A stretch of 63,465 nucleotides of DNA, counting the filler, from Basidioascus undulatus (taxonomy: Eukaryota): NCBI GenBank assembly GCA_000826855.1. It is 12 parts of 12 records of this genome, joined end to end, with 100 filler letters (N's around TTAATTAATTAA, not from the genome) between each part and the next. Parts side by side here need not be neighbours in the genome. Positions count along the whole stretch, not along the records: positions 25,655 to 30,680 come from JTLS01002025.1; 11 more parts are not named here. One strand, written 5' to 3'. The notes beneath the pieces are model-generated. The model was not told the DNA's origin. It saw only the letters and a list, made by a program, of their open reading frames with translations, and did not search any database. Positions within the stretch are counted from its first letter, which is position 1. Every line of letters starts with the position of its first letter. Both the position numbers and the translations under genes were made by a program. Below, one piece after another: positions 2,225 to 49,148 of the stretch.

Positions 2225-5047
2225 GCTGACTGGATTTGGGGGGGTCCTGAGCTGTTGTGATGAAATATGACGAGTTACATTTTGCCACTATGGCATTGCT
2301 CCTACGGAACGCGACGTCGGAAACTTTACCCCCCTGATGGACAGTGGAAAGACTGAGAGAATGCGTGGCCGTGGGGCTTGTCGGTACAAAGGAGGGATGC
2401 TATGGACCCGTCCTTCTGTCTGTGCACGTGGGCACGTGAAGTTCTCGAAAAGGCAGCATTGTCAAGATCGCCCCCATTTCCCTCCAGTTAATTAGTAGGG
2501 TAAGTGAAATCGCTAAACTGAACAGACCTGCACTGCTTTGCAGAGGGACGGGGTCAAACACGAGCCCAGGAAGATCTTCGGGGCTGGTGTCCCGTTACAG
2601 AAAAGTCGGACTGACGACGGTGGAAGCTGACATTTCCGCCTGGTGTAAACGGGGTCCGAACTTGTGATATTAGAAGAAACAGCTTATTATCTCTAGGTAG
2701 TTGACCTGCAAAGAGTAGACAGCGCAGCTGTGCATTACACCGCGGTAGTGAACTGAGATTAGCTTCGATCCCGTTTCTGACCCTGTTCATGGACAGGATA
2801 TTGCTCATAGGCGATCTGGCAAGGTCTTTCTACACTTACTGAAACGCAAACGGACACCTCGTCAGGCATTGGGCGCAGGTTGCGATTGGGGGTATCGTTG
2901 CAGTTTAAAACCAAGCTTGTCAGAGGGCGTCAAGGTTGTGCAGGCTTCGGAATCATTGAACGCAGAGGAGATAAAGCGAAGTCAATTATTACAAAGGGTC
3001 CTGCTGTTACACTAAGGGTAACCATTGCTGCGCGTCTCCTGGGACGCTTGTGAAAGAACCTGAAATCTTAAGAGCAGTACTTCTGGTCTCCGCCGGGGCC
3101 AGTGGCCCACATGGAAGCATCGAAGTACTACCGTCGGTGATGTACACCGCTGTCAGCACCTTGCATGAGCTGGGAAGATGTTAGCAGTGGCGCACCTGGC
3201 GCACCTGGCCGCCGCCGTGGCCGTCTGCTTGGAGGGTCGAGGGCGAGATGTGGCAGCCGAAGAGGGGCTAGTGGACGAGAGGATAATCAAGACGAGCAAC
3301 GAGGGGAACCCAGTGTGAACTATCGCGGGCTGCATGTTTAAAGGCCCACCTGGATCCCCGGCAGCAGCTTGCCCTGGATGTACGTCTCGGCTTCGGACGC
3401 GTACTCCACGGTAAATCCGAGAAGGGAAGCAGAAAATGCAAAGGCGTACCTATTAACACACTACACCAGCCGTCAGCCGTCACATCCGAACACGAACGAT
3501 CAGCTTGAGATCCAGCGCTCGCCTCAGTGGTTTTGCAACTTGGGGCTGCCGAAATCAGCGGAGATCTGGGGGGTATGTCCTGCAGCCGTGCTGTCTGTGC
3601 GTGCATCTGAGTGTGTGCACATACGAGTGTGTATGTAGGCGTCCGTGGCACGGTATATGAACAGACTCGTTGATGGGTGTGTGTTGGCAGGTTTTTTGGA
3701 GAGGTTCATCACCCGGATGCATAAATTTGCGGCAGCGTGCAACATTTCCACTTTCAGCAACTCAGTAATGTTTGTTCACCGAGTCAACTCGAAGTGGTCC
3801 TTTTACATGTACCAGCCAAGATACAAACTTGCAAGAAATTAAAGCCTTACAGGCAGACGTGTCCCCAGCGTCAACACTAGCTATACCCGTTGATCGCGGC
3901 CGTCAAGCTCTGCAATGCTGTGCTTATGTCTCACCAAGACAGTGGGTGTCAGAAGGATTTTCATAAGTAAGTCTGTTCATAAAAAGTTCCCATTGATGGG
4001 CGGGACCCGGGACTTGCGCCTACCAATCCTTTAGACCACCGACATTCGCGTATGGACGGACTCAACGCAGGCCGCTGTAACATGCATTACATCAGCAATG
4101 GTTCGGAACCTTACATCCAAGACCAATTTGGCATCTATACTTTCTCCTATCCATTCGACCCATACAGTGATGCAGCTTGAGAGATTGTTCAACACTTCCC
4201 ATTTCTCCACACCTGGAGATAACACGTCGCTTGGCTGGGGTAGTGGCAACCTGGGTCGTTGCCATTAGATATCGACCCGCCCCGTGTTCGATTCACGGGT
4301 CAAGCACAGCTTTTTGCAAGTTTTTGTACTTAACCATGCCAAACCAAGTCTTGAACGAACGTTCCATGCGACGAGGCGGGGAGTGCAGACTGGCTGTCGC
4401 GTCCAGGAGCAAATCAGGGCTGCGTTGCGATCCGGACCTTTCCTTTCCCTGGATATCGATCGATTCTATCGATTCAACACATCCGTGCCTGCAGTATATT
4501 TTGGGCGGGCGCTGCAAACATGGACCTTGACTGATCAGCGTCGAAAGCGAAAAGCAGCCCAAGTTCCCCTGTTTTCATTCCCATCCGGGCGTCCCACCGC
4601 TCACACACAGTCATCCGAGCAATCTGATCTTTCTTATCTGGAAACCAGACAGGTAAACCCATAAGATGAAAATGACACTGCCTGCCCGAACCCGGGACTG
4701 CGTCTGCACTGTACCGCCTTCTGTTGCTCGTTACAAGGATGGTTTCTGACCCTTTGACAGTGCCCAGGTAATCTTCTTTTCCCAGACTGCCGTCCATTGC
4801 TCCATGGCAGTCCCATCCTTCCCTTCGCAACCAGTTCCAGTGGTCCATTCATCCCAAAGAAAAGAACACTGCCCCTCCCCTCGCCCTCCCACCCAACCTA
4901 ATCCTCCTTCTCCTTTCTCCTCTTCCTTCTTCCGTCCTTCAGCGCATCCACAACACATTCCGCGCTCGCCACGCACCCCTCCAGCAGGGGTATGCCCCCC
5001 CAGCACCAGCTCCCGACGAACCACACGCCCTCCCCACCGCGCCTCTC

Positions 5048-7098: not shown

Positions 7099-7285
7099 GA
7101 TGTGCTGCTGGAAATGGGATGGTGCGTTGGAGGGAAGGCAGCGAGACGTGGATGCGCCGAGTGCGGGGTTATCGCCGACACACCGTGCCTGGAAGTGAAC
7201 TCAAAATTCCGATATTGGGTGCCCCTTCGCGGTGCCCAGCTCAGCGCCCTCGTGCCTTCATCTCTGGCCCACCCCAAGAACAGCC
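7099..7285. promoter_or_regulatory. Probable bidirectional promoter between GET3 and SRP68
   Basis: 187 bp between divergent ATGs at 7098 (-) and 7286 (+). Confidence 0.65.
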
Positions 7286-9184
7286 ATGTCCGCCCCGCCA
7301 ACCTCCAAAACGCAGTGGGAGCTGCCTGTACTCTCTTTGCTCACGGCCGAGCGCAATGCGTTCGGCCTCCGCACGCGGGACTACAAGCGCTACCGGTGGG
7401 TCTCCTTCCCTGCTCACCCACTCACAGCGCAGCGAGCTCATGCCCTCAGGCAACCGACAGCACGCACTGCGCCAATAAGGTCCACCGCCTGCGGCAGGTC
7501 CTCAAGCTCACCCACGGCAAGGTCAAGGGCTACAAGCCCGCTCCTCCCATCACGCCCGAGACGCTCACCGACGTCCGGTGCGCACCGTCCCTCCCTTCCC
7601 CTTCCCTCCCCCACTCACTCTCCCCCTTCCCTCCACCCAGCGCACTGCACCTCCTCCTCTTCCAGTCCGACAGACTGTACGCGCACTCGCGCGAGCTGCA
7701 ACCCACCCTCCCGCGCGTCGCGCACACGCGCCTGCGCCGGGCCCTCCAGTCCTCCTCGCTCCTCCTCTCCCTCGCGCTCTCCCTGCCCCCCGCACACGCC
7801 CTCCCCGCCTCGCACCTCGCCCAAATTGCAGTGCAGCACCTCGTCCTCCTTGGGACGATCCACCTAGACGCCTCGTCTTACACGCCCGCTTTGCACGCGT
7901 TCTCCCTCGCGCACGCGCTGCTCGCGCGGATCGCGCGCCTCGAGGCGTCCGACGACCGCGCGCGCGCGCTCGCGCAGGCCGCGGCGGACGAGGTCGCCCC
8001 TCAGGTGCGGTACTGCGCGTACCAGCTCGGCGAGCGTGGAACAGCGCACGAGGTGGAGCGCGTGGTGGAGGAGCACCTCCCAGCCGCGCGCGAGAGCGGT
8101 GCGCTGAAGGAGTTTGATGTGCTTGTTGAGCGGCTGGAGGAGGCGACCGCCGCGCGCGAGGCGCAGGGCGGGAAGGCCCAGCTCGAGCCACTTACCTGGC
8201 GCGGGGAGGTCGTCGACGTACGGAACGCGGAGCTCGTGGACGTCCTCCTCCGCGTGCAGCGTACGCGCGGGGCACTGGCCAACTCAAAGAAGCCTCCCAG
8301 ATCAAAGTACGACGGTGTCCTCCTCGCGTACACGGACGCAGTGGGCGTTGCGGCCGGCCTCCTTTCCTCCGCGGGCGGCGCGTCGTCCAGCAGCCTTCAG
8401 ACGCTGCACGACACGCTCGCCTTCCGCCTCCTCGATACCCGCCTCGAGCGGGACCTCGCGCTCGCGGGCGGCCTCGGCGACTCGCCCGCGGACGAGCGCG
8501 CGCGCGTCAAGCTTCTCGATGGCGTCCTCCAGACGCTCGGGCAGATGAAGGAGCTCGGCGTGGTAGAGGAGGATGATGAGCTGTCGGGATCGCTCGAGGC
8601 CAAGGTGGAGTACTACAAAGCTCTGCGGTGCGCCTCCCTCCTCCCTATCCTCTTTCCCTTTCCTCACTCACCCCCCGCCCCCACAAACAAATAGGAACCA
8701 CCACCTCGCGCGCTCGCACCACTTCGCCTCGCAGCCCGCCGAAGCGCTCACGCTCCTCTCCGCCGCGCACCTCTACCTGCGCTCCGCACGCACGCTCCTC
8801 CCCCCCCCCCCCTCGGCGGAGGACCGCACGCCGCTTTCCCCCGAACGCGACCTCGACGCGCACGACGCGCGCGTGAGCAAGGCAGAGGAGGAGGCCAAGC
8901 GCGCGTGGTTCGCCGCCCGCACGGCGCGCAGGCCGCTGTTCTTTGATCTTGCCGGCGCGGGCGTGGGAGTGCCGATGCAGGCGCTTTTGGAGCGTGCTGG
9001 GAGGGAGACGGGGGAGGTGCAGGAGGAGGTGAGGGAGGTGCAGGAGAAGGTCAAGGAGGTTAGGCTGGAGGAGAAGCCGGTGGTGGAGGATGTGGGGATG
9101 AGGGAGCAGGAGCGGGGGCAGGAGCAGGAGCAGGAACAGAAGGGGCGTGGGTCGTGGCTGGGCAGTTTGTGGGGGAGGAAGTAG
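7286..9184 (+). CDS. SRP68: Signal recognition particle subunit SRP68 (4 exons)
   Basis: ERNAFGLRTRDYKRYR/THCANKVHRLRQVLKL N-terminal motif, EVAPQVRYCAYQLG, LTWRGEVV, RRPLFFDLA, C-terminal GSWLGSLWGRK. Confidence 0.92.
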
Positions 9185-16451: not shown

Positions 16452-19249
16452 TCAGTGCGTCCTCCCCACGCTCTCCGGCTCCCGCTCCACAACCGCCGCC
16501 TTCTTCCCATCCTCCTGCTCCTCCTCCGCGCTGCTCCTCCGCTCCTCATCTTCCGGGAGCGTAATCGCCGCACGAACAGCCTCGTCCGCAAAGTTGCGGG
16601 TATCAATGACCTTGCGCTCAAACACTGTGTAGGGGCGGCCCGTGCGCCGCGCGTAGAGGTACGTCGCGCCCGCGCGGAGCGCGAAGAAGCCGAACGTCCA
16701 GAGGAGGCCGCCAATAGGCCTGTCGTAGGGAGAGGGGAAGGAGAGAACTGAGTGGGGGTGGGGTGGAATGGGATGGGGAGGGAGAGGGACGCACGCGACC
16801 AGGAACGCCCCGAAGGTCGACCAGTCGTTCGAGTAGAGCCCGTTTTGAAGGATGAGGACGCCCGCGCCTTTCGCTGCGTCGTTATCTGCCGCAAACAATC
16901 CGCGAGTCAGCCCAAGGCACCCAGCCAGGGGACGAATGAGGGCTGAGAGAGTGGGGAAAACGCACAGTAGATGCTCCCAAAGATGAAAACGGTGAAGAAC
17001 CCGCCGAGGCCGCCGACGATGATGTCGATCCCGCTGAGGAAGTAGAGCTGCGGGACGAGGCCGAGGAAGATGGGGGGGATGAGGGCCGCGGAGACGAGGT
17101 CGGAGATGAGGTAGAGGACGAGGATGTTGATTTTCTTGGTCGCGCTGCGGGAACCCAACGACCAGCATTCATACTTAGCCGGTCTGCGTCTCGAAAGAGT
17201 GAACAAGAAGCTAGGCAACGAGGAACTTACACGACGATAGCCGGGACGTTGACGACGAGGATAAGGCGGACCCACCAGATGCTGTTCCCCGACCCATCAT
17301 CAGCCGACTTCAAAAATCGAATTTCAGGTATCAAATTACTTGATACGGTTGCGGAAAACGTCGTTCGAGAGCGTAACAACGATCGCAGCCTGGAGCGTGT
17401 CGTACGCCGCGCACGACAGCGACAGTGCAAAGACGATGACGAAGCCGACGACCCAGGTCGGGAGCGTCTCGAGGATCTGGAAGAACGTGAACGAGCCGTC
17501 ATCGCCCTCGTACGCCGGGTAGAGCCCCGCCCAGGCCGCCAGGAGACCGCCTACAGGGAGGAGGAGCCGGCAGGGGGAGGGATGGAAAGGTCAGGGAAGG
17601 AGGAAGGTAGATGGATGGAAGGGAAGAAGCACGCACTGAACCCGACGAGCGTGAGGATGACAAAAACGATTGAGGACGCCGCCCCGCACCCCCACCGCAG
17701 GTCCTTGTCCGTCTTGGACGAGAACGCGCGCTGCCAGTAACCGCCTGCCCATCCGAAGACGTCAGCATGCACGGCCGGCCAGATTGTAAAGCAGAGAAAC
17801 AACACACTCAGGAAGAAGTTGTTGGTGACGATCGCGACGGGCAGGATGTAGAGGAGCTGCCAGCCGAGGAGGCTCGCGTTGAGGTAGCCAGACTCCCAGA
17901 TCGTGGAGGTGTCGATGCGGATGTTCACGCCCATGGCGACGGAGCAGCTGCGGCGTTCCACAACACATGAGCTGAGGGAAATTGGAATATAAATTTGCGA
18001 AAAGAAGAGCACCCACATGACGAGAAGAAGGAGGATCATCACGCCCTGCACGTTGTCGGTGATGAGCGACGTGCGGAAGCCGCCCCAGGCTGCGCATCGC
18101 CGCCATGATCAGCTGTCTGGTGGCTCGCAAAGAGTGTCAGGCGCAGCTTACCCGTGTACAAAAGTGTAACGACGACCTCCACGACCGTAGCCGGAATGGC
18201 GTTCAAGTCCGTCAGCGAGTTGATAACGCCCGTCACAGATGTAAGCTCCGAGACCTGTTCCCTCCACATCCACCATCAAGCCTCATCCTCCGCTCAGCCG
18301 CACGCTGCGCGGGCACACGCACCATGTAAATAAACATAGTCACGACCGAGAAGAAGCTCAAGAAGAGCGCGGCGGGCGTGCCGAAGCGCTCCCGCACGAA
18401 CTCGGTGAGGATGAAGCCGTGCGGGCAGAGCTTGCGGATCTTGGGCGCCAGGACGGGGAAGGTCAGGAGCGGGAGGGAGGACGAGAACTGCTCGCGTCGA
18501 CCTCAGGTCAGCGGGCGAGCGAGCGCTTTTCGAGGGAAGGGGAGACCCACGGCGTAGGTCAGGACGCCTTGGACGCCGGCGATGGTCGCGATCTGTTGGG
18601 GTTGGGCAGAAGGTGAGACGGCGGGGGTAGTGGGTAATGGAAGGGAGAACAACACACTTGAGGGTACGTGAACAGGATGCCGGAGCCCATAGCTTCAGAA
18701 CACCCCACAATCAGCACCTCCGCCCTCGCGGGGAGAGCAAAGAAGAAAAAAGGGAGAGAGTAAAACGCTTGCGTTCGCCAGCATTGCCTGGGGCACGTAA
18801 AGACGGTTCCTCCCGGGGGAGATCTCAGCCGGGCCGCAAGCGGCCACCAGCACCCGTAGCGTTTATACATTCCCTAAGACATACCTCCAGGCAGGTACGC
18901 TTTCGACGTTCTTCTCTCTCCCTCCATCATGCGGGGCACGCACCGGACGCGGCAAAGTTGAGCGCCAGGTAGGGCCCTGGGATGTGGGGAGTCGTTGGCC
19001 ACTCAGCCACTTACCATCCCAACAGAAGGGGGAGAGGAAAGAGCGAACATGTTTGCGTGCGAAGGGAGGACATGAAGTCGCCCTTGGACTTGGAGTATCG
19101 CCAGGAGACGACTGGGGTCGGCCGGATTAGTACTGGGGAGTTGAAGGGTGGGGGATGAGGGACACACAGAGCCCGAAGATGAGGAACACGCTGTAGGTCG
19201 TGTACATGATTGCGTTGGACGCCTCTGTATGCAGCACCGCCATCGCCAT
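16452..19249 (-). CDS. Solute:sodium symporter family transporter (DUR3/DUR31-like urea/polyamine permease), multi-exon
   Basis: MGSGILFTYPQIATIAGVQG, FILTEFVRERFG, LYTAWGGFRTSLITDNVQG, ILPVAIVTNNFFLS, YWQRAFSSKT, many hydrophobic segments; stop at 16452. Confidence 0.88.
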
Positions 19250-25520: not shown

Positions 25521-27764
25521 GTGCGTCCGTTCACCGCATGCCTCTCCTTCCCTCNNNNNNNNNNNNNNNNNNNNNNNNNNNNNNNNNNNNNNNNNNNNTT
25601 AATTAATTAANNNNNNNNNNNNNNNNNNNNNNNNNNNNNNNNNNNNNNNNNNNNGAGAGGGGAGAGTGGTGGGGGTGGCGCTGGTGCATGCTCGGTTGGG
25701 GAAGGGGGAAGGGGGACGCTGTATTTACTGTTGTACAAGAAGGCGGTGTGCAGGGGCGGGGGGTTCGAGGTGTCGCTGTGTATGTACGCTGTAATGTATT
25801 TCAGACAATCTAAAGACTGTTGTCCTATCCTTTGTCTACAATCTAAAGGCTGTTGTCCTGTCATTTGTGTAATTAGTTAGTGGATGATCAATGGTAACGG
25901 GGAACGTCGACTTTCTGACGCGCTGTGAATGAGAAACACCAAGGCGACGCAAACGTGCTGGGTAAGCCCGGCACAGCCACAGGTGACAGTTACAAAGCGA
26001 AAGGCTCGAGATCTGTTGGTAGCTCTTGGGCTCTTTCAATTGTGTGTGTGTGTCAGGTAACAGAATGAGTGAGACATGGACGGGTGAACAGCGATGGTGG
26101 CGCTCGCGATACACTCGGCTGTCGGCCCTCACACTGACGTTACATACCCGGGCGGCTTGTAAAGACTACTCACAAACTTTCCGGCCATGTTACAGAAGAA
26201 CTAGCGTACTGTGCAAGGCACCATAGCGAACTCCGTTGCAGAGCTCAGCACCTCCTCGCTTGTGGCATACGCGCCGTGAGGTCAGTCGACCGACAGCTTC
26301 TTAGAGAGGTACTGGGTTCCGCAGGAGCATGTTAGTGGGGCCCAGCATCACGGTCGACTGTTTGAGCTTTGAATGCTCAAAACAATCGGCCGTGGCGGCG
26401 AGTTCCACAACGACAACCCTGCGCAACCTCAATTCCTCCCGAAGAAGCTGTCGATCAACTGGCTGAAGGGCACGTGGTTCAGCCGGGAGCAGGAGGATCA
26501 CGAGCGAGGGCCACGAGCGAGGATCCCGAGCAAGGAAGGGGGGTTATATTCTGGAGAGGGTTCCGAAGGCTGGCTTGAGTGCGGGAGAGAAAGAGGGCCC
26601 GCCCATGGGGACGTGCTTTTATGTGTCCGCCAGGGTTAGGGCTGCTGGCCGGGCCCGGCTTGTCGGCGAAAGATCTTCAGGCCCCGAATCGGATCGTTGT
26701 GTCATATCAAGATGGGACATCCAGATCGGATGATTGAATGGAGTGCCGTCCGTTTGAGGGCAGAGCCGCACCGAGACCGGCCTTTGCGAACAGCGAAGTG
26801 TACAACCGCGCTCTCAGACACTCACCCCCCCAGCCCTCTGGACCCCACGAGCGAATAAATAACCATTCGGTTTGACACCGGTACTCTCAAAATGAATCTC
26901 GCATAGATCCGTGGGCGTTGCGAAAGGTGGATGGGCCGGAGCGTACAGGGCTGCACGCTACCGCGGTTTCGACCCGGGTCAGTAGCACGATCTTACAGAG
27001 CCAACAGCCTGACGAGTATCAACTCTATAAAACGATTACATTGATCTTGATGAGCAAAGGCCTCTTGGCGTGTCACAAGTGTGTGTAGGCCAGCGGAGCG
27101 ATGCGGGGATCGTCAGCTGCAAAACGCATGCGAGCTTGAGTCAGGATCGGTGTAGCAGCTTGTTAAGAGACTTTTGGTAAACTTTTATAAACCCCGAAGG
27201 GCAAGCTGTCAAACAAAGCTCGTGAACGAGAGGGAATTAGTGCTTGCGATTCTGAGCGTACCGATAATGGCCTCCGCCTTCAAATTTTCGTCAGAGGTGA
27301 AATATGGACTGCAAGCGGGCAACCATGTCCAGCCAGTTACTCAATCTTAATTTCCTTGATGTAGGACGTGTGTGCCGTAGAGGATGGAAGCTCGCATAAT
27401 CATCTGCGACCAGACTTACGACGGAAAGACGCTCCCGCATCTGGCACAGCTACAATGAAAGGCTGGCCCGTCCCGTTAGTGCCCATCCACTATCTCAGCA
27501 TAGATTAATTGAATGTGTGCAAATTTCCCGGCATGCACAGATTTGCCACAGATGGGCGAGCTACACTAGTGCTGCACTGCTGCCTGCAGTTTGACCTCGT
27601 TCCTGACTTTCTGAAGCGCTGGCCCCCCTAAAAGCGTGGTTTTATATAACGCTATCATTGGATAAGATAATTTGAGAGTGTTAAGTACCGTGCTGTTGCT
27701 GAATGAGAAGCATTGTGATACTTGAAAAGAGTAAAGAGTAATCCTTTCACACAAGGAATCTTAA

Positions 27765-27848
27765 GGGCGTATGGTGTAGTGGCTTATCACGCCTTCTTAG
27801 CATTTCGCTGAGTGGAGGAGGTCTCCGGTTCAATTCCGGATATGTCCA
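27765..27848 (+). tRNA. tRNA-Ala(AGC) with 10-nt intron after position 37
   Basis: Acceptor GGGCGTA/TATGTCC with G3:U70; anticodon arm CCTTC-TTAGCA[TTTCGCTGAG]T-GGAGG; T arm CCGGTTCAATTCCGG; T-runs downstream. Confidence 0.93.
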
Positions 27849-29184
27849 TAGCTTTTGCTTTTCTTCCTTGCCATCTTTGCTCATCATTGGTGCGTGTTCT
27901 TACTCGAACTGTCCCTTTATCCTTAGCCCCTCCCCCTTGATTTTCGCTCGGCTGAAGAAACACGCTTCCTCGCAGGTGGGCGAGGTTTGGGGTTTGAAGG
28001 TGGGCAAAGGCTGGGCCGAGGTTCAGATGGTCACGATGGTAGGAAGGGGATTTCACTAGAGCTCTTTCTACTTCTGTGTCTCTGACTTGGGGAGTTATGC
28101 TGGGACGGGACAGAACCAAGCTTCGAGTCCAGTTTACGAAAGACGGCTACGCGCCACACTCCATCTCTATGCGGTTCTGAATTGGTATCTGAGCAGAGCT
28201 TAGGGAATATTCCATTCCTAGCCATTTCAAGGAGATCTAGTAAACGTGCTGCCCTGCCAAAGGTGCTGAAGACATACCTACTGCACCCGATCCGAACTCA
28301 CCCTTACGCTGCCGCTCAAACCTGTTCTGAGGGAAAAAACCCACACAGGACTACCTAGTACAAGATTGGATAAATAGCTCCTGATGTCGGCTGTGGGCTT
28401 CATTTGCGGCTTTTCAGTCAGTGAAACAGGCGCGGGACAAAGTTTCAACCTACCCGACACAGACGGTTGAGAAGGTCCGCTGAATTAACCTCGATGCACC
28501 GCATGTTCACCTAACGTATGTATCCGCAACCGTGCAAATTGTATATATGAAGAGACTTCCTTGTGCGCATGGATTTTGTTCAGTCGGAGTCAGAACGGCA
28601 GAAGAAGGCGCACGCACAAAATTTTCACACCTCCGCCTGGCACCCCTCCACTAGCTCCTCCTCTTCAAACTATTTCCTCTTCATTCTTTTTCACTCCCAG
28701 TCTTCCTTCCAAACAAACAAACCAATTTCAACATTCCCACAACCCTCCTCCCACCGACCCCTCCCTCCCGCTTCAACCGACCACCACCGAACCCGATCAC
28801 AATCAGCGCCGGCCCATCAGCGCGCATCAAGATAGCAGCGTCATGTTCACCCCCCGCCTACCCCTGTGCCATCCGGCTCGCGTTGCACCACCCGGTCCAC
28901 CCCCTGGGACTGACGATATTGCCGATGTTGTCGATGTCTTGGACCGGTATATGAGGAGGTTTTTTTTTGGGAGGAGGGTGGTCTCTCTTAGTCCATCTCA
29001 TCGCTCGCGGCTCGTTGTCCTCTCTCGCCTACAGGGGTTCCGCTCTCTCTCGGGTTGAAGTGCTGGGAGCATGTTGGCGTATAGTTAGGTGAGTGGTGCA
29101 TATCTGTTAGCAAATCGGGGGGTGAACAGCTTGTCTTCTTCCGGATGAGAAGATAGAGGTGGGGGAGCGAGCACCAGCTGAAAA

Positions 29185-29287
29185 GTTGCAATGATGGACA
29201 ACTCAATTTTGCCTATGAAGTCTTCGGGCCTGAATGAACTCATATGTTCTTCCCTTCTACATTTTCTTTTGCCTGATCTTTTGCAAC
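29185..29287 (+). ncRNA. Intronic box C/D snoRNA candidate, copy 1
   Basis: C-like ATGATGG 29191, D box CTGA 29273, terminal stem GTTGCAA/TTGCAAC; inside intron 29089(GTGAGT)-29361(CAG) with CTGAC branch point. Confidence 0.7.
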
Positions 29288-29430
29288 CTCTCCTCTCTCA
29301 CCCACCCAAGCACTCGAGTTTCTCATGCTGACGATCTCGTGCTTGACTGGCGTTCATCCAGGTTCCGACCGCTTGTGGTCGAGGAATGGTAGATGGTGAG
29401 TTCTAGTCTTTTAAAGGCGGATAGAAGCGT

Positions 29431-29549
29431 GTGCGCACGGCTGTGATGGACAAAGAATTTTTGCCGAATATGACGAGGGCCGAGTGTCCAGATCGTGAAA
29501 TGGCAAACTTCCTTCCCTTCTACATTTACTCCTGAAGCTTCGCCCGCAC
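29431..29549 (+). ncRNA. Intronic box C/D snoRNA candidate, copy 2
   Basis: C-like GTGATGG 29443, D box CTGA 29532, flanks GTGCG/CGCAC; shares TGATGGACAA, TTTTGCC and CTTCCCTTCTACATTT with copy 1; inside intron 29396(GTGAGT) to ~29620. Confidence 0.7.
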
Positions 29550-30780
29550 TTCATCGTTTTTTAAGTGGGAGGTTTGGGGGATAAAATGCTGACGCAGAGC
29601 GTGGGGTGATTGATGGGCAGACAGGTAGGCGGGCTTGTCGGAAGCCGAGAGAAGGTAAGACGGTCTTTAATATTTTCTGTTGGGGCGATGGGGAGTAGGC
29701 CGATGGACGGAAGGGCGGAAGGAAGAATACAGTAATTGTAGTATTGCGAGGAAGGATGGGATTCGTCTTTGCTTAGAACCACTCTTGTGTGGAAAATAGC
29801 TTTGAGGTAGCGATAGCACTTCGATAGCCTATGGAGATGATCATTGGGACCAAGTGAACGTCGTCTCGACTGAAAAGCTCGGCTGGGCGGAGCTGCTGTG
29901 TCCCCGCATCGCATAGAGAAGTTATACTTGCTATTCCTCAACTGCGACCAACAAAACAGCCACAAGCGTTCCATTCGGCCTCAAACGCCCCTCTTATAGC
30001 TCCCATAGCGTCCCGTCGACGGTGCGATCAACGAAACATTCATACTGGGTAGTCTCCACGACGGCTACTTTGGGACGGAACACCCTAGGTACCCCCTTCG
30101 GCGCCATGACCGGTCGCGGAGTCTCTGGTGTAAGCCAGCGGGTGCGAAGGCACGCCGACCTGTTCTATGATGAGGACGTGGATCTCAAGGAAGAGATGCG
30201 GGACGATCATTTGCGTCCAAGTATGAGGGTAGAGCGAGGTCGATCGGGCGAGCAGAAGCAGCTTTCCTGGAAAAAGAACGCGAGCGATGGTGATACGCGG
30301 CAGAGAAGCGGAAGATTGTTTCTGTTTCCATAGACATGGGGTGCAATACGTGCAGGAAACCCTTCGCCTCTTTCGAACTTCTTTCGCCGATAGTTGTTGT
30401 AGCGTAAAGATGCTGAGATGCTCGCAAAGTCACGAGCGGGCACTGCTTGTTTGCCAACTCTCTTGCCCGCTCACTTATCGTCGAGGAGCAAATGAATTCC
30501 CACAGGTGTAACCCTAAGCCAAACACGAGGAGATGAGGGAGGGAAGGGAGCGAGCTGCCCCGCCCACCGGCAACCGGCCTTGCTCATCCCACAAACGTCT
30601 TCGAATCTACCCGCGATAGCGTCCGTGAGTCTCCCATCCGTCCCCAGCCTCTCTTTTACACCGCCGCCCTCGCAGCGCTCNNNNNNNNNNNNNNNNNNNN
30701 NNNNNNNNNNNNNNNNNNNNNNNNTTAATTAATTAANNNNNNNNNNNNNNNNNNNNNNNNNNNNNNNNNNNNNNNNNNNN

Positions 30781-31959: not shown

Positions 31960-34034
31960 ATGGCACAGTACCATAAACAGCACGCGCCCGCGCCCGCGCC
32001 GCCCGCGACACCTCAGCTCGCGCCCCAGCAGGCCCAGCAGGAGGCTCTCAGCGTCGTACTCGCGACCGCAGGGTACGACCACACCGTGCGCTTCTGGGAG
32101 GCGTGGAGCGGGATATGTTCGAGAACTATTCAGCATCCTGATTCGGTGCGTGCAAGGTCCTCTGATGATCCGAAGCTACGGGGCAGGGGATGGAGAGGAC
32201 AGCTCGAAGTTGCTCCCCTCTGTGCGGAGAACCCTACCCTCCATTCGATCGATCATACGACTTTCGATTTCACTTTCAAACATCAAACTTGGAACTCGTC
32301 AAGTTCATCACTTACTGACGCTACTGAGCCTGGCATTTTTCGTACGCGCTCACAGCAAGTAAACCGCCTATGCATCTCACCCGACAAGCGCTACCTCGCC
32401 GCGGCGGGCAACAACTCTGTAAAGCTGTACGACATCAACAGCATGAACCCCAATCCTGTACGTCTCCTCCAAATCCCCCAACCCAACCCCCACTACCCCT
32501 TCCTCCTCTCCTCTCCTCTCTCCCTTCCCCCTTCGCCCTCTCTCCGTTCCCGCTCCCGTCCCATCCCCCTGCCTCAACAACCTACATTCCTACTTCCATT
32601 CTGCTACCACGTCCCCGCCCGCCTACGGCGTTCTAACTGACCCCTTCTCCCTTAGATCCAAACCTTCTCATCCCACACCGCAAATGTCACCGCCGTCGTA
32701 TTCCAAACCGAGGGAAAGTGGGTCGCGACCGGCTCTGAAGACGGGACGGTCAAGATCTGGGATACGCGGTTCGTCCTCTCTCCTCCCTCCTCCCCCTCCC
32801 CTGTACCCCTTCGCCTATCTCCATCCTCCATCCTCCTTCCCCCTCCTCATTTTCCCTCCTGCCTTTCTCTTTCTGGGGTTCAGCTGAACGCTAACTGAAC
32901 GGCACGCGGTTCAGGTCATCGACCGTCCAGCGCGCATACGACCACACCTCGCCCGTGAATGATGTGATCATCCACCCGAACCAGGGCGAGATCGTCTCGT
33001 GCGACCAGGCGGGTAGTGTGAAGGTGTGGGACCTGGGGGAGAACACGTGCAGCCATGAACTGGTGCGTCCCCTTTCCCTGTCCCCTTCCTTCCCGAGTGA
33101 GAGGGACTTGAGCTGAAGCTGGTTGTGGGGGGGTGCGCGGTGCGGGGATGAAGGTTCCGGAGGAGGACACGCCGATTCGGAGCGTGACGATCGCGAGTGA
33201 TGGGAGCAGCTTGGTTGCGGGGAACAACAAGGCGCGTCTTACTCTCCTCTTCCGGTCCCTCGTCCTCCGCCTGCTGATTCTCTGGAGAGGCTGATTATTG
33301 TGGATGGCGGGACCAGGGCAACTGCTTCGTGTGGAAGATCCGCGCAGAGGCGGACACGTCCGAGTTCACGCCGATCACGAAGCTGCCCGCGCACGGGAAG
33401 TACATCACGCGCTGCGTGCTGTCGCCTGATACGAAGTGCATGCTTTCTCCTCCCTTCTCCTCCCTTTCCCCCTTCTCCGTCTCCCCTCTCTTCTACCTAC
33501 ATCTTCCTTTCTCCCTTTCTTCCCCTCAGCCCTGTAAAACGAAACGGAGAGAGGAGGTAGCTGACCTGATGATGCGCAGGTACCTCGCGACCTGCTCGGC
33601 AGACACGACGGTCAAGATCTGGTCTACGCACAACTACGAGTTCCGGCTCGAGAAGATCCTCGCGGGGCACCAGCGCTGGGTGTGGGACGCCGCGTTCTCG
33701 GCAGACTCGGCGTACTTGGTTACTGGTGTGTCCTCCCTCCCCTCTTCTTGTTTCGCTCCTCTTCGACGCTTGGCGGTTTGAAGAGGGAGAAGCTGATGTG
33801 TCGGGGTGGTGCAACAGCCTCCTCAGACCACTCTGCAAGACTCTGGGAGCTCAGCTCAGGCGAGACGGTGCGGCAGTACAACGGCCATCACAAGGCTGCG
33901 GTGTGCGTCGCGCTGAACGATATCGTCCGTGATCTCCCTCACCTCTCCCTCTTCCTCTTCTTCTTTCTCTTGTGTTCTCTTTTCCGTTCGGACGCTGAGT
34001 GCGGTGGGCGGGGCGATAGAACTTCGCTTCTTGA
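31960..34034 (+). CDS. LST8: TOR complex subunit LST8 (WD40), 9 exons, one GC-AG intron (donor 33232)
   Basis: [107 protein letters not shown]. Confidence 0.97.
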
Positions 34035-49076: not shown

Positions 49077-49148
49077 TAGCTTGATCTGGTTTCGATCCAG
49101 AGACCTGTGGGTTATGAGCCCACCGCGCTTCCCCTGCGCCATCAAGCT
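49077..49148 (-). tRNA. Initiator tRNA-Met(CAT)
   Basis: A1:U72 pair, GGG/CCC at the base of the anticodon stem, T-loop ATCGAAA (A54/A60) diagnostic of eukaryotic tRNAiMet; T5 terminator downstream. Confidence 0.96.

Follow-up and report, generated by a model that had tools for sequence, protein, structure and literature searches.

Small nucleolar RNAs (snoRNAs) of the box C/D class are in their large majority methylation guides. Some of them contact ribosomal RNA (rRNA) twice: van Nues et al. (2011; PMC3116282) described snoRNAs with one guide in use whose second guide region provides extra pairing, not adjacent to the D or D' box, through elements that span 4-11 base pairs (bp) in yeast and are complementary to the rRNA immediately flanking the methylation site. 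To methylate efficiently, snR75 and snR76 depended on this extra pairing, its mutation leading to 2-5 fold less methylation; the extra pairing was present in every snoRNA with the shortest guides, and snR62 is listed among the yeast snoRNAs with flanking extra complementarity (PMC3116282). The term "accessory guide" is used by van Nues and Watkins (2016; PMC5389607), who report that such pairing also influences site choice in snR13. A placeholder role was proposed by Jaafar et al. (2021; PMC8536666) for snR190, which combines a D'-linked antisense box A with a 15-nt box B, gives no methylation at the predicted G2395, and has diverged C'/D' boxes (C' is interrupted in some species) and an internal stem that involves the guide. 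Here we describe two box C/D RNAs, snoRNA A and snoRNA B, of Basidioascus undulatus (assembly GCA_000826855.1). They lie in a window of 63,465 nucleotides, filler included, which is the whole stretch of DNA analysed and joins 12 parts of 12 records end to end; the locus belongs to the part at positions 25,655 to 30,680, from record JTLS01002025.1, and all positions count along the window.

Our preferred reading, to which we give about an even chance, is that A and B are intronic C/D methylation guides with an accessory arm on one region of the large subunit (LSU) rRNA. In snR75, snR76 and snR13, one active guide beside D' is likewise accompanied by a second conserved element in the unused guide region, and in accessory-guide snoRNAs, as here, that element lies away from box D, pairs with rRNA flanking the guide target and goes with a short guide. 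A and B each have a non-guide element of this kind flanking the guide target, its conservation being that between two paralogues. Their two-armed layout would thus fit the published architecture and be unusual in quantity: the arm exceeds the guide in length, the predicted site is not a known 2'-O-methylated nucleotide (Nm) in the species surveyed, and the two paralogues keep their arms while the guide registers lie 3 nt apart. The initial annotation had called these RNAs atypical, a label that is overstated because a short D' guide with longer accessory complementarity in the second guide region is already published (PMC3116282).

With snR190 the two RNAs have in common a D'-linked antisense, a second antisense element of about 15 nt, a diverged or interrupted C' box and a target in 25S rRNA. 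The elements of snR190, in contrast, bind the distant domains V and I while those of A and B bind abutting segments, so that the pattern of two long antisense elements directed to distant rRNA domains is absent here. We detected no sequence similarity of snR190 to A or B, and the lack of methylation was demonstrated for snR190. The third comparison is with snR62/SNORD34 (U34; 25S Um1888, 28S Um2824), which acts in the same rRNA neighbourhood, the long block of A and B covering the conserved U. For that U, however, the N5 rule does not hold in A or B, no Rfam match links them to this family, and the Neurospora crassa homologue uses a 14-bp D' guide (PMC2780460).

Two box C/D RNAs in predicted consecutive introns

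The initial annotation had placed a C-like box, a D box and a terminal stem in each of two consecutive introns; all of these are seen in both, and its intron, box and block coordinates agree with the sequence (Table 1). A and B each have a C box of the RUGAUGA type, a CUGA box D and a short terminal stem, the features of the class, the last C-box position being G, not A, in both copies. The arrangement AUGA-hairpin-UGA(A)AUG(A/G) is kept in A and B around hairpins that are unrelated in sequence and both fold, and it may plausibly form a D'/C' kink-turn. The D'-like box begins with A in both copies, and the stability of the AUGA-hairpin is no better than that of shuffles.

Pairwise alignment of the two RNAs gave runs of identity only at the C box with the next four bases, at UUUUGCC and at a 16-nt block, CTTCCCTTCTACATTT. 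This bears out the earlier report of a shared TTTTGCC and a shared 15-mer amid divergence, with the identity of the long block reaching 16/16 nt, one nt beyond the 15-mer. The 15-mer core occurs at exactly 2 places of the window (29249 and 29512) and 0 times on its opposite strand, and TTTTGCC is found in 6 copies on the plus strand, 3 of them inside A and B. In A, 1 nt separates the end of the short block (TTTTGCC from 29207) from AUGA, and 8 nt separate the end of the long block from box D; in B, with the short block TTTTGCCGA from 29459, the corresponding gaps are 2 nt and 4 nt, so that the blocks do stand at different distances from the D and D' boxes in the two copies, as had been noted. 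A and B are probably old paralogous snoRNAs that diverged outside the boxes and the shared blocks.

Both introns contain the octamer TGCTGACG (29326-33 and 29587-94), which resembles a branch site. Between the 3' end of the snoRNA and the 3' splice site there are 74 nt for A and 80 nt for B, and the distance from that end to the putative branch A is 44 nt and 52 nt, respectively; such a distance from the 3' splice site is, as reportedly found by Hirose and Steitz in 2001, the optimum for intronic C/D snoRNAs.

The host would be a spliced gene without sign of coding. In its spliced model the longest open reading frame (ORF) that starts with ATG has 71 codons (28843-29058); a maximum of about 63 codons had been proposed, which proved too small, and the accompanying statement that this ORF ends before the last intron stands, since it lies entirely in exon 1. 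No Pfam family matched the exon-1 frame, and the search of the 71-codon ORF against 1.84 billion representatives gave none at 1e-10 or better and a single weak, repetitive match in four stretches (E 8.9e-05); it is on these two results that we see no sign of coding in the host. Spliced non-coding hosts that carry intronic C/D snoRNAs, one per intron, were described in Cryptococcus (bioRxiv 10.1101/2023.12.08.570810; 10.1101/2024.10.08.617225). The present host resembles these hosts of Cryptococcus and the Tremellomycetes in that it carries several snoRNAs, one per intron, and that the exons are not conserved.

Complementarity of both blocks to abutting segments of LSU rRNA

The target sequence was deduced from 31 other eukaryotic LSU fragments and from the Rfam consensus. 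A gapped pattern made of the reverse complements of both blocks led to L001, a eukaryotic LSU gene among viral contigs, and the 26-mer read from it occurs exactly in at least 30 further eukaryotic ribosomal DNA (rDNA) fragments within prokaryote assemblies. The rRNA segment that the initial annotation had given is therefore real. Since these 30 loci were chosen by the exact 26-mer, they are uninformative on variation inside it; the base 3' of it is T in 30/31 loci and C in L011, and the base 5' of it is C or T across the 30 genome loci. The Rfam eukaryotic LSU consensus gives the segment in upper case, and the UA skipped by the long block is among these letters; according to the consensus structure, most of the long block's target belongs to the 5' strand of a long-range helix, and the short block's target is the single-stranded junction ahead of the next hairpin.

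In the Rfam model alignment of the Saccharomyces-like fragments L021 and L029, which are identical over 1967/1967 overlapping bases, the first base of the segment is at position 1883. With the 5' end of mature 25S rRNA 3 nt further upstream, this first base corresponds to about 1886, and the third one falls on U1888, where snR62/U34 acts; the segment would thus cover about 1886-1911 in yeast 25S numbering, with the conserved U at index 2 of the 26-mer. This placement is supported by N. crassa Am1845, Am1859, Um1866 and Gm1907, for which 4/4 fall on the right nucleotide with Um1866 on that U and which do not fit if Um1866 is placed on the next U (PMC2780460). Orthologues of snR63/U46 or snR13, whose targets would lie near 25S 2256-2281, were also considered and ruled out, as the segment counts to about 1886-1911. 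As a side observation, L002-L031 comprise at least 30 prokaryote genome or metagenome-assembled genome records with eukaryotic LSU rDNA fragments, several of them Saccharomyces-like, which looks like assembly contamination.

With each of two LSU sequences, the 16-mer forms its best duplex at the target segment, at -19.0 and -18.9 kcal/mol, energies that shuffled 16-mers equal in 2/300 and 7/300 trials, respectively. The short block alone is not significant, shuffles doing as well in 122/300 and 107/300 trials with copy A and in 54/300 and 40/300 with copy B. Its best site, however, abuts that of the long block, and shuffled pairs abut in 0/300 trials (A) and 1/300 (B). The long arm forms 8+7 bp around a 2-nt bulge (UA) of the rRNA. 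When each RNA was cofolded with a 46-nt piece of rRNA both arms paired at once, with a free-energy change (ddG) of -21.2 kcal/mol for A and -16.7 kcal/mol for B, and in copy A two rRNA nucleotides (UC) are left unpaired between the arms. Bipartite complementarity to adjacent LSU segments with a 2-nt rRNA bulge, as first proposed, is thus supported by the duplex and abutment shuffles.

The rRNA searched, which comprised 18S without its 5' part, yielded no canonical target for the D guides of A and B. A 12-mer adjacent to box D of A has a G-U-rich 12-bp match 83 nt upstream in 2/6 LSU loci; it was rejected, the match lying in a variable stretch and being equalled by shuffles in 94/300 trials. 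The third UUUUGCC of A (29267-29273), used as a D guide, would form just 6 bp with the GGCAAAA run of the rRNA target and put N5 on its third A.

Guide register and predicted methylation sites

Counted from AUGA, the short block of A forms 8 Watson-Crick bp at N2-N9, with N5 on the first A of GGCAAAA. In B, where three extra bases precede AUGA, it forms 9 Watson-Crick bp at N3-N11, with N5 on the first G of the GGCAAAA run (the G after UC in UCGGC). Both D' guides thus have the uninterrupted duplex including N5 that characterises a methylation guide, though a short one. By the N5 rule the predicted Nm are at about A1908 for A and about G1905 for B (yeast numbering). It had been claimed that the blocks do not fit the D+5 rule of methylation; this is right for the long block in both copies, because the conserved U stands opposite N12 (A) or N8 (B) counted from box D, and is not supported for the short block, in which N5 is paired within an 8- or 9-bp duplex.

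Table 1. Positions of the predicted host gene segments and of the parts of snoRNAs A and B, counted along the window.
Feature	Positions	Strand	Remark
Putative exon 1	28843..29088	+	contains the sole sizeable ORF; predicted from the spliced model
Intron 1, 273 nt	29089..29361	+	GTGAGT...TGCTGACG...CAG; houses snoRNA A
Putative exon 2, 34 nt	29362..29395	+	bounded by consensus splice sites of both introns
Intron 2, 225 nt	29396..29620	+	GTGAGT...TGCTGACG...CAG; houses snoRNA B
Putative exon 3, start	29621..29654	+	GTAAGA 5'-splice-like site next, at 29655
snoRNA A, 103 nt	29185-29287	+	box C/D RNA in intron 1
A terminal stem GTTGCAA/TTGCAAC, 7 bp	29185-91/29281-87	+	
A C box ATGATGG	29191-97	+	
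A D' guide AUUUUGCC	29206-13	+	
A D'-like AUGA	29215-18	+	
A UUCG hairpin	29220-29	+	
A C'-like UGAAUGA	29231-37	+	
A 16-nt accessory block	29249-64	+	
A third UUUUGCC, overlaps box D	29267-73	+	
A D box CTGA	29273-76	+	
snoRNA B, about 102 nt	29439-29540	+	box C/D RNA in intron 2
B terminal stem GGCT/AGCT, 4 bp	29439-42/29536-39	+	
B C box GTGATGG	29443-49	+	
B D' guide UUUUGCCGA	29459-67	+	
B D'-like AUGA	29470-73	+	
B hairpin	29474-95	+	
B C'-like UGAAAUGG	29496-503	+	
B internal GGCAAA, just 3' of C'-like box, able to pair with the guide	29502-07	+	
B 16-nt accessory block	29512-27	+	
B D box CTGA	29532-35	+	

Methylation guides, placeholders or remnants

The preferred reading is supported by the features of the class, the intronic spacing, the retained blocks, the specific and abutting pairing, the short block at guide distance and the published architecture. 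In this scheme A and B would be released from consecutive introns of the spliced host and would assemble into small nucleolar ribonucleoproteins (snoRNPs). Each snoRNA would then bind the 5' strand of the helix and the following single-stranded junction, 3' of the Um1888/U34 site; the long accessory arm, in the otherwise unused second guide region, would supply affinity and specificity, and the short D' guide directly upstream of AUGA would place fibrillarin for 2'-O-methylation. If so, a universally conserved junction in domain IV of the LSU would carry two lineage-specific Nm sites separated by 3 nt, with an extreme case of accessory pairing, by an arm longer than the guide and broken by a bulge, that offers a natural test of the extent to which extra pairing substitutes for guide length.

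Several observations weigh against guided methylation. The target sequence comes from other eukaryotes and the Rfam consensus, not from the rRNA of this organism, and no homologue of A or B came out of the metagenome scan. Considered as guides in their own right, the D' duplexes do not surpass chance matches at other rRNA sites. The N5 nucleotide differs by 3 nt between A and B, so that the selection visible is on the pairing and not on the register. The C'-like box has, relative to UGAUGA, 1 inserted A residue in A and 2 in B; GGCAAA at 29502-29507 of B mimics the rRNA target and, in the predicted fold, pairs with N5-N10 of the guide. The arm, with 15 bp and a 2-nt target bulge, exceeds the 4-11 bp of the yeast accessory guides. 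Finally, the predicted sites are absent from the published tables surveyed: they are not listed in yeast, where Um1888 is the sole Nm between Gm1450 and Cm2197 (PMC5199042); Arabidopsis, tomato and tobacco have none between the U34 site and Um2114 (PMC11542601); they are not listed for Dictyostelium or among its yeast, human and Arabidopsis equivalents (PMC8817022); and they are not among the predicted targets in N. crassa (PMC2780460).

Some of these points speak for a non-methylating placeholder or chaperone like snR190, a serious competitor of the preferred reading that we regard as somewhat unlikely. Bound to the nascent pre-rRNA, both arms of the snoRNPs would shield the 5' strand of the helix and the junction until the distant 3' partner is transcribed, and C'/D' would not place fibrillarin productively. 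In its favour are a pairing that is conserved with an N5 register that is not, predicted sites that are not known Nm in the tables of the surveyed species, a long arm that is the better conserved element and dominates the binding energy, and the structure of the target, for which the Rfam LSU consensus shows a long-range helix's 5' strand and, after it, a single-stranded junction. snR190 itself is the precedent for a D'-linked antisense without methylation (PMC8536666); the pairing of GGCAAA with the guide in B recalls its internal stem and is comparable to it, and the C' boxes of A and B are interrupted. Against the placeholder, the short block stands at exact guide distance from a D'-like box in both copies, which a pure tether would not need, and the snR190 elements bind distant domains, whereas the abutting segments here resemble accessory guides. 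That role would also depart from that of the large majority of C/D snoRNAs, which guide methylation. If it were true, A and B would be a second snR190-like chaperone snoRNP, for another rRNA domain and outside the Saccharomycotina, with implications for the way in which long-range rRNA helices stay open while transcription proceeds. A related proposal, which we consider likewise somewhat unlikely, sees in them not methylation guides but a dedicated clamp that grips the beginning of LSU domain IV with two arms; by covering the 5' strand of the helix and the adjacent junction, it would hold that strand open until its distant partner is made. The conserved UA would then be bulged out, with UC unpaired between the arms in A, and the retention of paralogues that have identical arms and differ in box register would result from selection on binding only. 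A different enzyme might gain access to the bulged or unpaired nucleotides, by analogy with the bipartite acetylation guides snR4 and snR45.

That A and B are the divergent snR62/U34 equivalents of this lineage, the long block directing methylation of the conserved U (Um1888) with a non-canonical spacing from box D, seems to us very improbable. The long block does cover that U, whose placement is backed by the four N. crassa sites (PMC2780460), and methylation of this U extends from Dictyostelium through plants to human (PMC11542601, PMC8817022). The snoRNA residue opposite the U, however, is N8 (B) or N12 (A) instead of N5, with no D-like box 4 nt downstream of this residue; the target bulge of 2 nt is 6 nt from the site; the guide of the N. 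crassa homologue is a 14-bp D' guide (PMC2780460); and the isolated snoRNAs gave no SNORD34/snR62 match in Rfam at E up to 10. We attach an equally slight probability to decaying or unexpressed snoRNA-like relics, or to a fortuitous complementarity to rRNA. Consistent with relics, the Rfam search of the window gave no snoRNA family at gathering score, and up to E of 10 there were just generic C/D hits below threshold; the best Rfam match, snoR126, reaches 21 bits against a cut-off of 39 and covers just the 5' half of B, and copy A has matches only at E>1. When metagenomes were scanned for both blocks separated by 25-55 nt, 8 loci came up; 0/8 have a C box on the upstream side or a D box on the downstream side, and these were for that reason treated as chance matches. 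On the other side, a block identical at 16/16 nt and intact boxes persist in copies that have otherwise diverged, the target sites abut where shuffles do so in 0/300 and 1/300 trials, and the intronic spacing is correct in both snoRNAs. Whether A and B are methylation guides, our preferred reading, or placeholders, the gain is at the level of annotation for a poorly covered snoRNA repertoire and is not a new principle.

Other features of the window

A further C/D-like element lies at 2251-2345 (+). Its boxes are GTGATGA and CTGA, its terminal stem of 6 bp has G-U ends, and it begins 27 nt after a stop codon (2222-2224). TTTTGCC is found in it at 2280, within a local hairpin, and it shares the 11-mer AATATGACGAG with snoRNA B (2264-74 versus 29467-77). 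This element had no Rfam match and no canonical target in the rRNA sequence searched. A simple box-and-stem scanner gave C/D-like hits at 33814-33899 (-), with an 8-bp stem, and at 33191-33303 (+), with a 6-bp stem, together with two more; none of the four had a canonical target in the rRNA sequence searched, and the hits at 33814-33899 and 33191-33303 are probably false positives. Rfam also identified a thiamine pyrophosphate (TPP) riboswitch aptamer at 18753-18867 (-), with 58.9 bits against a gathering cut-off of 54.3, and a transfer RNA gene at 49077-49148 (-), with 59.4 bits. An ORF of 526 amino acids at 7114-8694 (+) contains an SRP68 domain (Pfam PF16969, E 2.2e-41).

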